A program made the translations under genes and the position numbers. The notes beneath the pieces were generated by a model, which ran no database searches, was not told where the DNA came from, and saw only the letters and a list, made by a program, of their open reading frames with translations. A stretch of DNA of 32,488 nucleotides from a virus, in UHGV virus genome UHGV-0151217. One strand, given 5' to 3'. Positions 1,428-6,132 of this stretch are shown one piece after another; the first letter of the stretch is position 1; each line of letters opens with the position of its first letter.

Positions 1428-1664
1428 ATGATGGTTAGAAATGAAGTAATGAACAAAGACTGGCACCGCGAGTACATCGTTGCCGCTGTGCACACCAAAG
1501 GTTTTACATTGCGTGAACTTTCTGAACGCGCTGGTCTAAAAAAAGACTCTTTAAAAAATGCACTGTATCGCTCATGCCCTAAATATGAACGCATCATAGC
1601 CGATGCTATTGGTGTGGAACCTGCGGAGATCTGGCCAAGCCGGTATGCCAGTAAGGCGGCGTAA
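1428..1664 (+). CDS. ner: Ner-like DNA-binding early regulator
   Basis: The 78-aa product contains DWHREYIVAAVHTKGFTLRELSERAGL...IIADAIGVEPAEIWPSRY, closely resembling the Mu Ner family. RBS AAGGGTAA. The stop overlaps the transposase start. Start may instead be 1449 (MNKDW...). Confidence 0.8.
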   Translation: MMVRNEVMNKDWHREYIVAAVHTKGFTLRELSERAGLKKDSLKNALYRSCPKYERIIADAIGVEPAEIWPSRYASKAA

Positions 1665-3706
1665 TGTTTTATTCAGCCAATGAGCTGGCCGGTCTTCCTC
1701 GTTTGCCCGGTACAGTTCAGGGGGTGCGATGGACGCTCAATCGGATCACAGAGACGCACCCGGAATGGAAGCGCAAGCGTGAAGGCACAAAAGCATTCGA
1801 GTATCACATCGACAGCCTGCCCGCTGAAGCGCAGAAAGTTTTACGTAAGCGCCTGACTCATCAGGTCCTGGAAGATGCACAACTGCCCGCCGTGGTTGAG
1901 CAGAAGGCAGTTAAAAACGTCGCCGTTCGCGATGAACTGGAAGTGATGGTCAAATGCCCGGAACTGGCATTACGCGAAGTCCAGGCACTGACCGACAAGC
2001 AAAAGGCCATTGCTGATGCGCGGATATTGCTGGCTACTGAAGTGCATAAACTGCGTGAATACGCCGGAATGACCAGGAAGGCCGCGTTAAAGCACATCGT
2101 TGATGGTGTGCGCATGGGGGCGTTACCTGACCGCATTATCGAAGCAGCGAATACTGCAAATGCACGTCAGGGAAAGCGAACCGGTGTCAGCACCGGCAGC
2201 CTGGATAGCTGGTACTCCAGCTGGGTGATGGCGCGCGGTGATGCCAATCAGTTACTGGCGTTACTGGCTCCCGGTCATCATAAGGGAACTCCGTGGGAGC
2301 AGGTCTGGTGGCTGAGCGATTTCTTTATGTTCTATCGCTCATGGAAGCGCCCGACCGTTGAATACGCTTATCGCGAGTTTTCAGCCTGGTGGCATGAGAA
2401 ACACGCGAATGATGCGGGAATGCTGGCGGCACTGCCTTCAGTTCACGCAGTAAGACGAGTGTTAAGCAGCGTCCCGGTGATTGTTAAGGAGCGTTTCCGC
2501 TCCACAGGTTCAGCCTGGCGTTCGCTCAATCCCTTTGTGCGGCGCGAGTGGACATCATTACCGGTTAATGCGGTATGGGTCGGGGATGGTCACTGTATGA
2601 AAATGACCGCGTTTAACCCCCTGACCGGCAATATTTTCCGGCCAGAAGTGACGCTGGTTATGGATGCGGGGCAGCGCTTTGTTGTGGGCTGGTCACTGTC
2701 CCTGTCGGAAAACGTGATAGCCGTTGCTGATGCGTTGCGTTACGGCATGGCACAGCACGGGATACCGCTGATTTATTATTCCGATAACGGGGGCGGCGAA
2801 AAAAACCGGGTGCTTGATGCCGATATTACCGGGATTCTGCCCCGGCTGGGTGTGGAGCATCACACGGGGATACCGGGTAACCCGCAGGGGCGCGGGGTAA
2901 TAGAACGGGCAAACAAAGGAATACCCAAAGACGTGGCACTGAGTTTCCAGACGTACTGCGCAAAGGATGCAGACAAGGAAACCGTAATGATGCAGCAACG
3001 GATTATGCAGTCGGCCATTAAGGCCACCCACAAAGGGAAAGAACTGACAAAACGGCAGGTTAAGGCGAGGGATGAAATCCCCACCTTTGAGCAACTGATG
3101 GCCGCCATAGAGCTGGAGGTCAGACGCTATAACAACCGGCCACACAGCAGCCTTCCCCGCAAAGAGGATGGCGAATATTACAGCCCGGCAGCGTATCGCC
3201 GGAAACTGATAAAAGAGCAGAATGTTGAAATTGATTTTCTGTCGCAGGAAGAACTGCATGAAATGTTCAGGCCGGAAGTGACGCGCAAAACATTTCGCGG
3301 GGAAATTCAGTTATTCAACAATATTTATTACTCGTATGAACTGGCCGCAGAGCACGGGAATGAAGTCAGGGTCAGTTACGATATTCATGACGCAAACAGT
3401 GTCATTGTCCGTCGGGCTGATGGCTCTTATATCTGCGATGCCATCTGGAACGGCAATAAGGTTGATGCCTTCGCTAAACCAGTTATCGAGCAAAAACTGG
3501 AGAAACGCGTCAGAGGCCGCATTGCACGGGCCACGCAGAAAATCGAAGAGGCTAAACGCGAGCTTACCCCGGCTATTACGCAGAAATCTGAGTTTAATTT
3601 TGGATTTGGTCTGGAGCGCCCGGAGAAAAAGGAAAAAGAAGAACTTTATTTATTCGCATCTGAACGCGAGCGCAATTTAAAGAAAAACGGCACAAACAAC
3701 CGTTAA
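1664..3706 (+). CDS. DDE transposase (MuA-like)
   Basis: 680-aa ORF immediately after ner with a TAATG stop/start overlap. Size and position match phage Mu transposase A. Confidence 0.85.
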   Translation: MFYSANELAGLPRLPGTVQGVRWTLNRITETHPEWKRKREGTKAFEYHIDSLPAEAQKVLRKRLTHQVLEDAQLPAVVEQKAVKNVAVRDELEVMVKCPELALREVQALTDKQKAIADARILLATEVHKLREYAGMTRKAALKHIVDGVRMGALPDRIIEAANTANARQGKRTGVSTGSLDSWYSSWVMARGDANQLLALLAPGHHKGTPWEQVWWLSDFFMFYRSWKRPTVEYAYREFSAWWHEKHANDAGMLAALPSVHAVRRVLSSVPVIVKERFRSTGSAWRSLNPFVRREWTSLPVNAVWVGDGHCMKMTAFNPLTGNIFRPEVTLVMDAGQRFVVGWSLSLSENVIAVADALRYGMAQHGIPLIYYSDNGGGEKNRVLDADITGILPRLGVEHHTGIPGNPQGRGVIERANKGIPKDVALSFQTYCAKDADKETVMMQQRIMQSAIKATHKGKELTKRQVKARDEIPTFEQLMAAIELEVRRYNNRPHSSLPRKEDGEYYSPAAYRRKLIKEQNVEIDFLSQEELHEMFRPEVTRKTFRGEIQLFNNIYYSYELAAEHGNEVRVSYDIHDANSVIVRRADGSYICDAIWNGNKVDAFAKPVIEQKLEKRVRGRIARATQKIEEAKRELTPAITQKSEFNFGFGLERPEKKEKEELYLFASERERNLKKNGTNNR

Positions 3707-3724: not shown

Positions 3725-4618
3725 ATGAGTTTAATTACGCAATTAAATGACGTAATGGCCCGTCGCGGCTATACGCAGACCCACGTCGCCCGTGCAATTG
3801 GTCGTAGCAGCGCCGTTATCAACCAGTATTTGCAGGGTAAATATCAGGGCGATATGGCTGATATTGAAGAACGCATTTCTGCCTTTGTGACCCGTGAGCG
3901 GGAAAAGGAAAACAGCCGCCGTATTAAAGCAAAGTTTGTGACCACCGGTATGGCTGCCAAAGGACTGGAGGTGCTGGCCTACGCTCACCTGGAATGTGAA
4001 ATCTGTGTGCTGTATGGCGCAGCTGGCCTTGGCAAAACAATGATTCTGCGTGAATACGCCGCCAGAAACCGGGATGCGGTCCTGATTGAGGCTGACCCAG
4101 GCTATACAGCCAGGACACTGCTTGAGGAGTTGTGCCGCCAGCTGGGGGTAAAGGTTCGCGGCAACATTCACGAACTGATTGATGCCTGTGTGCGCGAACT
4201 GCGTGATTCCGGTCGTCTGCTGATGGTGGACGAAGCTGAACTGCTCCCCTATCGCGCACTGGAGGTTCTGCGCCGTCTGCATGATAAAGCGGGTATCGGG
4301 GTTGTCCTGGCGGGTATGCCTCGTCTTCTGATTAATCTCAAGGGGCGTCGTGGTGAATTTGCGCAGTTATACAGCCGCGTGGCGCTGGCGCTTAACCTGG
4401 GCGACACGCTGGCGCAGGAAGATTTTAACCAGATAGCCACCGGGCTGATGCCGGAAGCAGCAGAACCGGAAATCAGCGAGGCGCTTTACGCGCGCTCGCT
4501 GGGTAATGCCCGCCGCCTGTTCAAACTGGCGCGCGGTGTGTACCGGATTTGCGATATCAGCGATGCGCCGGTCAGTGTGCAGGCCATAGATAAATTCGCA
4601 GAAATGTTAATTCACTGA
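3725..4618 (+). CDS. Transposition ATPase (MuB-like, AAA+)
   Basis: 297 aa with a Walker A motif (GAAGLGKT), a Walker B-like LLMVDEAE, and an N-terminal HTH-like segment. Directly follows the transposase. Confidence 0.85.
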   Translation: MSLITQLNDVMARRGYTQTHVARAIGRSSAVINQYLQGKYQGDMADIEERISAFVTREREKENSRRIKAKFVTTGMAAKGLEVLAYAHLECEICVLYGAAGLGKTMILREYAARNRDAVLIEADPGYTARTLLEELCRQLGVKVRGNIHELIDACVRELRDSGRLLMVDEAELLPYRALEVLRRLHDKAGIGVVLAGMPRLLINLKGRRGEFAQLYSRVALALNLGDTLAQEDFNQIATGLMPEAAEPEISEALYARSLGNARRLFKLARGVYRICDISDAPVSVQAIDKFAEMLIH

Positions 4619-4631
4619 GTAAAGGTCAGGT

Positions 4632-4964
4632 ATGGAACAGATTGCCGTAAAAAAAGAAATTAAAGCACTACGGAATATCGGTCGTAATGGTTGTATTTAT
4701 TTTAATGGAACCCCCGGTGAAATTATTCCGTTTGTTGATTGCTTCGTGCCGGGTGAACTGCGTATTGATTTATATTCCCGTGAACGGGAAATCAATGGAA
4801 CCGGAAATACCAGCGACGACTGGGATGTTGATGAATGCTGTGCGCGATTAATGATTATTCCTTTTGAGCAGACTTTGCAGGGGTTTCGTCGGGCTTACCG
4901 CCTTGCACGCATGTGTGCCCACCTGCCCCGGTATCAGCCCCGACTGGCGTTTACGCTCAGATAA
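4632..4964 (+). CDS. Hypothetical protein (accessory early region)
   Basis: 110-aa ORF, 13 nt after the MuB-like stop. Bracketed by a 19-bp direct repeat (see findings). No family recognised. Confidence 0.5.
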   Translation: MEQIAVKKEIKALRNIGRNGCIYFNGTPGEIIPFVDCFVPGELRIDLYSREREINGTGNTSDDWDVDECCARLMIIPFEQTLQGFRRAYRLARMCAHLPRYQPRLAFTLR

Positions 4965-5002
4965 TACAGCAGAGAAATGTTAATTCACTGATGGAGAACA
5001 AA

Positions 5003-5230
5003 ATGATGGAAAAGCAGGCCATTAATGCCGTCCGTTCCCGTGCCCGTGTGGCTATCCATACCACTGGCGGTCGCGTAACGGGGCAGCATCACCGTTTACC
5101 TGTGGTTTATGCCTGCCCGCCTGTGGGTGGTCCTGTATGGCCGGTAACGGAAATCGTTCAGACATTCAGCGGCCTGCGCCGCGTGGTTAAAACGTCCTGT
5201 ATCGACGGCTGTACCGTCGTATGGCAATGA
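5003..5230 (+). CDS. Hypothetical protein
   Basis: In-frame ATGs at 4991, 5003 and 5006. GGAG at 4993-4996 favours 5003. No family recognised. Confidence 0.45.
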   Translation: MMEKQAINAVRSRARVAIHTTGGRVTGQHHRLPVVYACPPVGGPVWPVTEIVQTFSGLRRVVKTSCIDGCTVVWQ

Positions 5231-5242
5231 GAGGAAATCAGA

Positions 5243-5458
5243 ATGGCGGTGAAATTAGAAGTAATTATCTATACCAATGAAAAAGGCGCGACTCTTACCC
5301 GGATTACAGGGAGTTATTCGAAGGATGGCACTTCCAAAAGGGAGCTTCAGGTGGCAACAGGATTACATGATGTTATCAAGGAAACGCTTAGAAATGACTA
5401 TAACGGCGTGAATCTTTTTTCTGAAAACGTTGCGCCTCGCGCACATAACACACATTAA
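5243..5458 (+). CDS. Hypothetical protein
   Basis: 71-aa ORF with RBS GAGAGGAAA 6-8 nt upstream of the ATG. Confidence 0.5.
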   Translation: MAVKLEVIIYTNEKGATLTRITGSYSKDGTSKRELQVATGLHDVIKETLRNDYNGVNLFSENVAPRAHNTH

Positions 5459-5487
5459 TCTGTAAATATCACTGAGGTAATTTAATT

Positions 5488-6132
5488 ATGACGACTGAAA
5501 ATAAAGTTAAGCAATACACGAAAACTCAAGCGCCTGAAGGTTATTGGGTGGATGCACGTGGCGTAATGACACCTGAAAGCCTTATCAAAGATATTGACCG
5601 CGACCGCGAGCAGCTGGTCGGTGAGCTTGTGGAGATGGTGATTGCTGCCTCCGCCTCACTACGTGAACTGAAACTGCGTGCGTTTGGTGATATTCAGGCG
5701 TTTATTGACCTGTCGGCGGAGAAATACGGCGCTGTGAAAGGCGGCAAAAAAGGCAATATCACGCTTTACAGCTTTGACGGGCGATACAAGATTCAGCGCG
5801 CCATGCAGGACCGTATCGCGTTTGATGAACGCATTCAGACCGCGAAGTCGCTGATTGATGATTGCCTGGCTGACTGGACGGAAGGTGCGCGCCCTGAAAT
5901 TAAAGCCATCATTAGCGAGGCATTCAGCACGGACAAGGAAGGCAACATTAACACAGGGCGCGTTCTGGCCCTGCGTCGCCTCGAAATTGAGGACGAACGC
6001 TGGAATAACGCCATGATGCTGATTGGTGAAGCCGTCCAGGTGATTGGCAGCAAGAGCTATATTCGTGTGTATGAGCGCGTTGGTGATTCTGATGAATACC
6101 GCGCAATCCCGCTTGATATTGCAGGGGTTTAA
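5488..6132 (+). CDS. Hypothetical protein (possibly DUF3164-type, as found in Mu-like prophages)
   Basis: 214-aa ORF with RBS GAGGT upstream. The family assignment is from memory of the profile and is uncertain. It is not Gam-like by eye. Confidence 0.65.
   Translation: MTTENKVKQYTKTQAPEGYWVDARGVMTPESLIKDIDRDREQLVGELVEMVIAASASLRELKLRAFGDIQAFIDLSAEKYGAVKGGKKGNITLYSFDGRYKIQRAMQDRIAFDERIQTAKSLIDDCLADWTEGARPEIKAIISEAFSTDKEGNINTGRVLALRRLEIEDERWNNAMMLIGEAVQVIGSKSYIRVYERVGDSDEYRAIPLDIAGV

Follow-up and report, generated by a model that had tools for sequence, protein, structure and literature searches.

The junctions of phage mosaics have been explained by illegitimate recombination or by recombination at short conserved flanking sequences, both established proposals (PMC2327257), and homologies of 5–13 bp are recombined by RecET (PMC2327257). 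In the lambdoid mosaic junctions described by Martinsohn, Radman and Petit (2008, PMC2327257), relatedness changes sharply at gene boundaries, the join falls at a microhomology of a few bases or where the end of a gene is conserved over a short stretch, and recombination of two related temperate phages yields a hybrid that is viable. Lambdoid morons, in the Hendrix/Juhala definition quoted in PMC4378225, are single extra ORFs of deviating GC content between genes that are adjacent in relatives. In the Pseudomonas phages D3112/DMS3, short ORFs of lower GC content are present or absent at fixed sites of the left (early) arm, between core genes, in what have been called 'regions of genomic plasticity' (PMC4378225); the flanks of Mu-like accessory ORFs were stated there to be as yet unanalysed for mechanism. 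In the 'semi-essential' early region of phage Mu, genes A and B are followed by kil and by other small accessory genes, and kil comes directly after B.

We compared these systems with one locus in a window of 32,488 nucleotides, the whole stretch of DNA that was analyzed (UHGV virus genome UHGV-0151217). The window carries the left arm of a Mu-like transposable prophage, with an early operon that holds a MuA-type transposase, a MuB-type ATPase and a kil-type gene. At its left end, the frame of an ORF at 29–277 breaks at about 272–280, where prophage sequence starts, and a repressor-like gene lies on the minus strand at 598–1245. The translation of ORF 29–277 is presumably the N-terminus of E. 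coli RhaR, and the prophage appears to be inserted in rhaR. The features of the early operon around the locus are listed below; ORF110 denotes the 110-aa ORF between B and kil, and the donor and recipient phages are defined further on.

1664-3706: MuA-like transposase gene (Pfam Mu-transpos_C, HTH_Tnp_Mu_1 and rve).
3725-4618, plus strand: MuB-like AAA+ transposition ATPase gene (B), 297 aa, C-terminus ...FAEMLIH before the stop (Pfam AAA_22, 9e-23; PHROG 296 'DNA transposition protein', 5e-104).
4600-4618, plus strand: repeat copy 1, coding; (A)EMLIH, the last five codons of B, and the TGA stop.
4619-4631, plus strand: B-ORF110 intergenic spacer with a Shine-Dalgarno-like AAGG, resembling the Salmonella-type spacer (GTAAGG...).
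4632-4964, plus strand: ORF110, 110 aa, a putative accessory early gene of a small unnamed family.
4965-4972, plus strand: 8-nt spacer TACAGCAG, the probable remnant of the donor ORF110-kil spacer (the donor TGCAGCGG held the donor kil Shine-Dalgarno GGAG).
4973-4978, plus strand: AGAAAT, the candidate crossover microhomology, present in the donor spacer and in the recipient B 3' end.
4973-4991, plus strand: repeat copy 2, non-coding; its positions 4979-4991 (GTTAATTCACTGA) are a probable relic of a recipient-type B 3' end.
4992-5005, plus strand: kil ribosome-binding region TGGAGAACAAAATG, positioned identically to the B-kil spacer of relatives without ORF110.
5006-5230, plus strand: kil-like gene, 74 aa (PHROG 2679 'Kil protein for bacterial septation inhibition', 2.6e-34).
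5243-5458: gene for a 71-aa protein.
5488-6132: DUF3164 gene.

The kil assignment is made because of the PHROG profile match. The window's kil has no Pfam or NCBIfam match, and its protein found no match in the phage collection by tblastn. In locus L065, a 74-aa gene at the kil position matches PF26843 Kil_protein; the two genes were not compared directly.

The locus shares with phage Mu the succession of A, B, kil and further small accessory genes, but ORF110 stands between B and kil, and the window has a DUF3164 gene where some relatives have Gam. One such module swap is seen at positions 4418–4942 of locus L015, where a Mu Gam gene (PF07352) takes the place that DUF3164 has in the window and in most relatives. 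Like the Pseudomonas plasticity regions (PMC4378225), the locus has a short ORF of lower GC content (46.5%, versus 55.0% for B and 57.8% for kil) that is present or absent at a fixed early-arm site between core genes; the phage group is a different one, however, the ORF is unrelated and in the window one junction is resolved. As a single extra ORF of deviating GC between genes that are adjacent in relatives, ORF110 also resembles a moron, but with neither a promoter nor a terminator of its own found, it falls outside the strict definition; it lies within the early operon. A consensus scan of positions 4326–5396 found no sigma-70-like promoter and no intrinsic-terminator-like site, with counts equal to those in shuffles. 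ORF110 has its own Shine-Dalgarno sequence, and we read it as an accessory early-operon gene that would be transcribed with B and kil. The three properties of lambdoid mosaic junctions named above recur here. Unlike those junctions, the one in the window can be read base by base from both parents, it contains a 13–19-bp duplicate of a gene's 3' end, a signal that most reported junctions do not have, and the phage is a transposable, Mu-like one.

The initial annotation had pointed out a 19-bp direct repeat that brackets ORF110, with one copy encoding the last residues and stop of the MuB-like gene and the other non-coding, and both descriptions hold as written. The 19-mer, AGAAATGTTAATTCACTGA, has two exact copies on the plus strand, at 4600–4618 and 4973–4991; no third copy occurs in the window at up to three mismatches, and matches were found in 0 of 100 dinucleotide-preserving shuffles of the window. 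It is the longest exact repeat within 4400–5300. Copy 2 is separated from the ORF110 stop by 8 nt and from the kil ATG (5006) by 14 nt. The borders of the two copies differ on both sides, with C versus G at −1 and G versus T at +1. In the haplotype of loci L003, L039 and L040, the repeat is 22 bp long, CGC plus the 19-mer, and in L008 and L040 the B end differs (CGAAATGTTAATTAAGTGA), so that the repeat is imperfect there.

The same annotation had proposed to look for relatives with a single 19-mer and no intervening ORF, and such empty loci were found in quantity. Using the B-kil region (4200–5500) as a megablast query, we obtained matches in 58 of 5426 complete E. coli genomes, 10 of which cover the whole query. 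Most of the other matches come in pieces that span 928 bp rather than 1301 bp, which is 373 bp less and exactly the repeat period. With ORF110 alone as the query, 10 of the 5426 genomes match. We read eight empty loci from E. coli (L001, L002, L004, which is EPEC E2348/69, L005–L007, L009 and L010) and 13 from IMG/VR (L025–L037). Each has a single 19-mer at the B end, followed directly by TGGAGAAC...ATG of kil, and the window has the same TGGAGAAC string after copy 2. Filled loci are outnumbered about fivefold by empty ones, whose B proteins are 84–100% identical to the window's. The best empty match is 93.9% identical, the filled ones 98–100%, and no near-isogenic filled/empty pair was seen among the E. 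coli genome matches. An arrangement common to all relatives, with diverged repeats, which the initial annotation had named as speaking against its own reading, was not seen.

We collected filled loci from four sources: complete genomes, draft assemblies, IMG/VR and metagenomes. Every E. coli-type locus among them has the same right junction, in which an 8-nt spacer is followed by the 19-mer and then by TGGAGAACAA. Their left side is variable, with three B-ORF110 spacers and two ORF110 N-termini (MEQIAV... and MEKMAL...). The base to the left of the repeat is C, recipient-like, in the L003-type haplotypes and G, donor-like, in the window-type ones. Segment by segment, the window's nucleotide identities form a mosaic: to empty-type phages B is 94–99% identical; to L008, positions 4681–5242 are 99–100% identical and the sequence upstream of 4681 is 71–91% identical; and to the Salmonella type (L011), the values are 52–62% for B, 95% for the 19-mer, 77–86% for ORF110 and 64–69% for kil. 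Relatedness to the donor lineage, as represented by L011, thus shifts abruptly at the borders of the insert, and ORF110 therefore moved between lineages independently of its neighbors.

Individual relatives show further changes in this region. In L024 (IMGVR_UViG_2529292908_000014), the A7 run in codons 7–9 of ORF110 is A6, which causes a frameshift; the copy is either a pseudogene or the product of a homopolymer sequencing error. L008 (E. coli RM9088) carries two IS1A copies, one at 1–614 in the A gene region and one at 2690–3387 in the region of the 71-aa gene, and its prophage is therefore defective. Between kil and the 71-aa gene (window 5231–5242), the relatives L002, L005–L007, L009 and L010 have between none and two additional small ORFs (83 aa and 63 aa). 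No long repeat was found at these kil/71-aa-gene ORF junctions, which leaves the 19-mer scar without a second case in the region. Shine-Dalgarno-like strings, AACGAGGARYTRAAA and AAAGGAGAAAAAC, are present there, and the pattern suggests that ribosome-binding sites may themselves act as recombination microhomologies.

The gene order B-ORF110-kil also exists without any repeat, in L011–L015 and L069, which we call donor-type loci; the empty E. coli type is correspondingly called the recipient type. L011–L014 were found via the Salmonella protein P0004 (serovar Give), L011 and L014 being NCBI assemblies, and the repeat-less loci carry ORF110 homologues of 78% (Salmonella serovar Give) and 74% identity. 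The donor-type spacer between ORF110 and kil is 18 nt long and reads TAA TGCAGCGGAGAAATCATC ATG, with the consensus TGCAGCGGAGAAAT[CT]AT[CT]ATG across L011–L015 and L069. The Salmonella-type spacer ends in ...GCGGAGAAAT followed by CATCATG (in L011–L015 and L069, ...TAATGCAGCGGAGAAAT followed by CATCATG), and the E. coli recipient B ends in ...CGCAGAAAT followed by GTTAATTCACTGA, or in a longer reading TTCGCAGAAATGTTAATTCACTGA TGGAG. The window junction reads TAA TACAGCAG AGAAAT GTTAATTCACTGA TGGAG, which is donor sequence through AGAAAT and recipient sequence afterwards. AGAAAT is contained in both the donor ...GCGGAGAAATCATCATG and the recipient ...CGCAGAAATGTTAATT, and in the donor it lies 3' of the kil Shine-Dalgarno; over nine positions, donor CGGAGAAAT and recipient CGCAGAAAT agree at eight. 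Both parental arrangements, the un-duplicated empty junction and ORF110 without the repeat, are therefore in existence, and the window junction can be derived from them. To look for independent events, we also scanned IMG/VR and the metagenome collection by pattern for donor-type loci that have the spacer variants TACAGCAG and TGCGGCAG; known arrangements and chance matches were all that came up.

We consider it likely that the repeat was left behind when two Mu-like phage lineages recombined by an unequal (out-of-register) crossover. The donor parent would be the type still seen in Salmonella, with ORF110 and the 18-nt spacer between B and kil, and the recipient parent would be the E. coli majority type, in which kil directly follows B. 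Donor CGGAGAAAT, from the kil Shine-Dalgarno region, would pair with recipient CGCAGAAAT, the Ala-Glu-Met codons near the B end, and a crossover there would leave donor DNA to the left of the join and recipient DNA to its right. Such a recombinant would carry a complete B, ORF110, the now non-coding last 13–19 nt of a second B, and then the recipient's kil with its own ribosome-binding site. The mosaics of today, the window with its E. coli-type B among them, would have arisen by later homologous exchanges in B and in ORF110; we infer the order of these events, their number and the recombination enzymes. The initial annotation's claim that ORF110 was inserted or exchanged at this point, and that the repeat is the scar, would thus stand as far as an acquisition scar is concerned, with the refinement that the event was probably an unequal crossover, introgressing the gene into a lineage that did not have it, and not the insertion of a free cassette.

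Three findings count against the crossover model. The donor-type loci found have a B that is just 52–62% identical in DNA to the window's, and therefore a second exchange near the conserved B terminus is needed, or an unsampled E. coli donor. In addition, the invariance of copy 2, described below, is not predicted for a purely neutral scar. The C/G difference to the left of the repeat calls for later mutation, heteroduplex segregation or two independent events.

An insert with an exact direct target repeat on both sides is the formal signature of a mobile cassette, and ORF110 could in that case have entered by site-specific or transpositional insertion, with the 19-mer as a target-site duplication or attachment site. 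We find this scarcely credible. The 354-bp insert has no inverted repeats at its ends, and its sole ORF bears no transposase signature; neither a recombinase nor a transposase lies within the insert, and all family members examined lie at one position, just after B in Mu-like phages. There is no integron attC-like palindrome in or beside the 19-mer, whose neighbors are A, B and kil. A length of 19 bp exceeds that of typical transposon target duplications, and the repeat-less donor explains the junction base by base. Because the first 6 nt of copy 2 (AGAAAT) pre-existed in the donor spacer, the 19-mer would not be a 19-bp target duplication at all, and only the 13 nt of GTTAATTCACTGA would have to come from B. 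Alternatively, the filled arrangement could be ancestral in this clade and the empty B-kil junctions the result of repeated precise deletion between the 19-mers. Direct repeats of about 19 bp can mediate precise deletion, the empty junction is the exact product of such an event, and ORF110 may well be lost now and then by repeat-mediated deletion. Such deletion cannot explain where the repeat came from, however: copy 2 is part of a B-kil junction, and a B-kil arrangement must therefore have existed before the repeat did. The abundance of empty loci, the 84–100% protein identity of their B to the window's, the lack of a near-isogenic filled/empty pair among the matches and the gap between the best empty match and the filled ones also speak against the filled arrangement being ancestral, and we judge it improbable.

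A further proposal concerns the maintenance of copy 2 and complements the scar left by an unequal crossover: the last ~19 nt of B, together with the next 10 nt, might be a cis-acting element for kil expression, so that only recombinants that brought a copy of the B end were viable or fit. Lying upstream of the kil Shine-Dalgarno, the element could for example be an A/U-rich enhancer of translation, or it could be a mini-ORF, AUG-UUA-AUU-CAC-UGA, whose stop overlaps an in-frame AUG (UGAUG). Across the six filled haplotypes, 0 of the 19 sites of copy 2 are variable (0/29 with the next 10 nt), whereas the adjacent spacer varies at 4 of its 8 sites and the third codon positions of the flanks at 30 of 59 (Fisher p ~2e-5); the kil variable-site count is inflated by a frameshift in L003, and with kil left out the contrast is 18/37 (spacer and ORF110 third positions) versus 0/19. 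These haplotypes are few and related, however, and the diversity of the flanks was possibly imported by recombination. The neighboring former donor Shine-Dalgarno GCGGAG (window 4965–4972 versus L011 3331–3338), which would be functionless after the crossover, is decaying to GCAGAG or GCGCAG depending on the filled lineage, and copy 2 is not. At empty loci, an in-frame ATG that some have annotated as the kil start overlaps the stop codon of B (TGATG), and copy 2 retains a four-codon mini-ORF that ends at the same TGA; yet RNA structure near copy 2 and the kil start is not above that of shuffles (z 0.4 to 0.6), and donor-type and distant phages express kil without such an element. Conservation of the B end across genera is also explained by protein constraint. 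We hold a cis-acting role for copy 2 to be unlikely. If it were true, ordinary B-kil phages would hide a cis element in the last codons of B, and no gene could settle between B and kil unless it brought a copy of the B 3' end along or regenerated one. It would then explain both the invariance of copy 2 and why the sole ORF110 junction that has spread in E. coli-type phages is the duplicating one.

The B terminus itself varies as a coding sequence does. B genes that are 62–66% identical keep FAEMLI[NH] before the stop but use other codons (CTG/CTC, ATC/ATA, AAC/AAT) and the stops TAG or TAA, and over B genes of 62–100% identity the C-terminal motif is kept at the protein level with synonymous variation. 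Because of these synonymous changes in diverged B genes, ordinary protein constraint would suffice to account for the conservation of copy 1. We also considered the 19-mer as a recombination 'linker' at the B end; this seems unnecessary, as diverged B genes keep the peptide and change the codons, although the non-coding copy 2 is invariant all the same. The tail F[AS]EMLI[HNK] is kept across MuB-like proteins of 62–66% identity from Edwardsiella, Kosakonia, Erwinia, Pantoea and Phytobacter (loci L018–L064), and this suggests that the C-terminal tail of the MuB-like ATPase may be functional.

We now turn to ORF110 itself. Pairwise dN/dS values against five homologues are 0.09–0.33, with dS of up to 1.3, and ORF110 is a real, old accessory gene under purifying selection. 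It has no match in Pfam, PHROGs or NCBIfam. In a collection of 5.8 billion proteins its relatives form eight clusters, the named ones being from E. coli and Salmonella, and a profile search of 1.8 billion representatives yielded 21 family members of 86–111 aa with the conserved motifs D.YS, DWDVD and F[RK]RAYRLARL. An AlphaFold2 model built on a 24-sequence alignment has a confident alpha/beta core, and the model had no meaningful structural match in the PDB or BFVD. Distant members of 53% and 38% identity, for which two genomic contexts were fetched, also lie directly 3' of B in Mu-like phages and have no repeat. The post-B position is therefore ancestral for the family, and the E. coli B-kil lineage would have been without ORF110 and then regained it. 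Because ORF110 sits in what is the 'semi-essential' early region of Mu, our guess is that it has a host-directed or anti-defence role.

The locus is a case of ordinary phage mosaicism with an unusually legible junction, and it leaves current understanding unchanged. Mosaic junctions are common and seldom show how they were made; here the parents, the microhomology and the product can all be read. The locus raises the question of whether kil expression depends on sequence inside the B end, and it brings to light a small, conserved protein family, the 'first gene after B' proteins. If the crossover reading is right, it would also show concretely how a transposable phage can gain a gene through a misaligned crossover.
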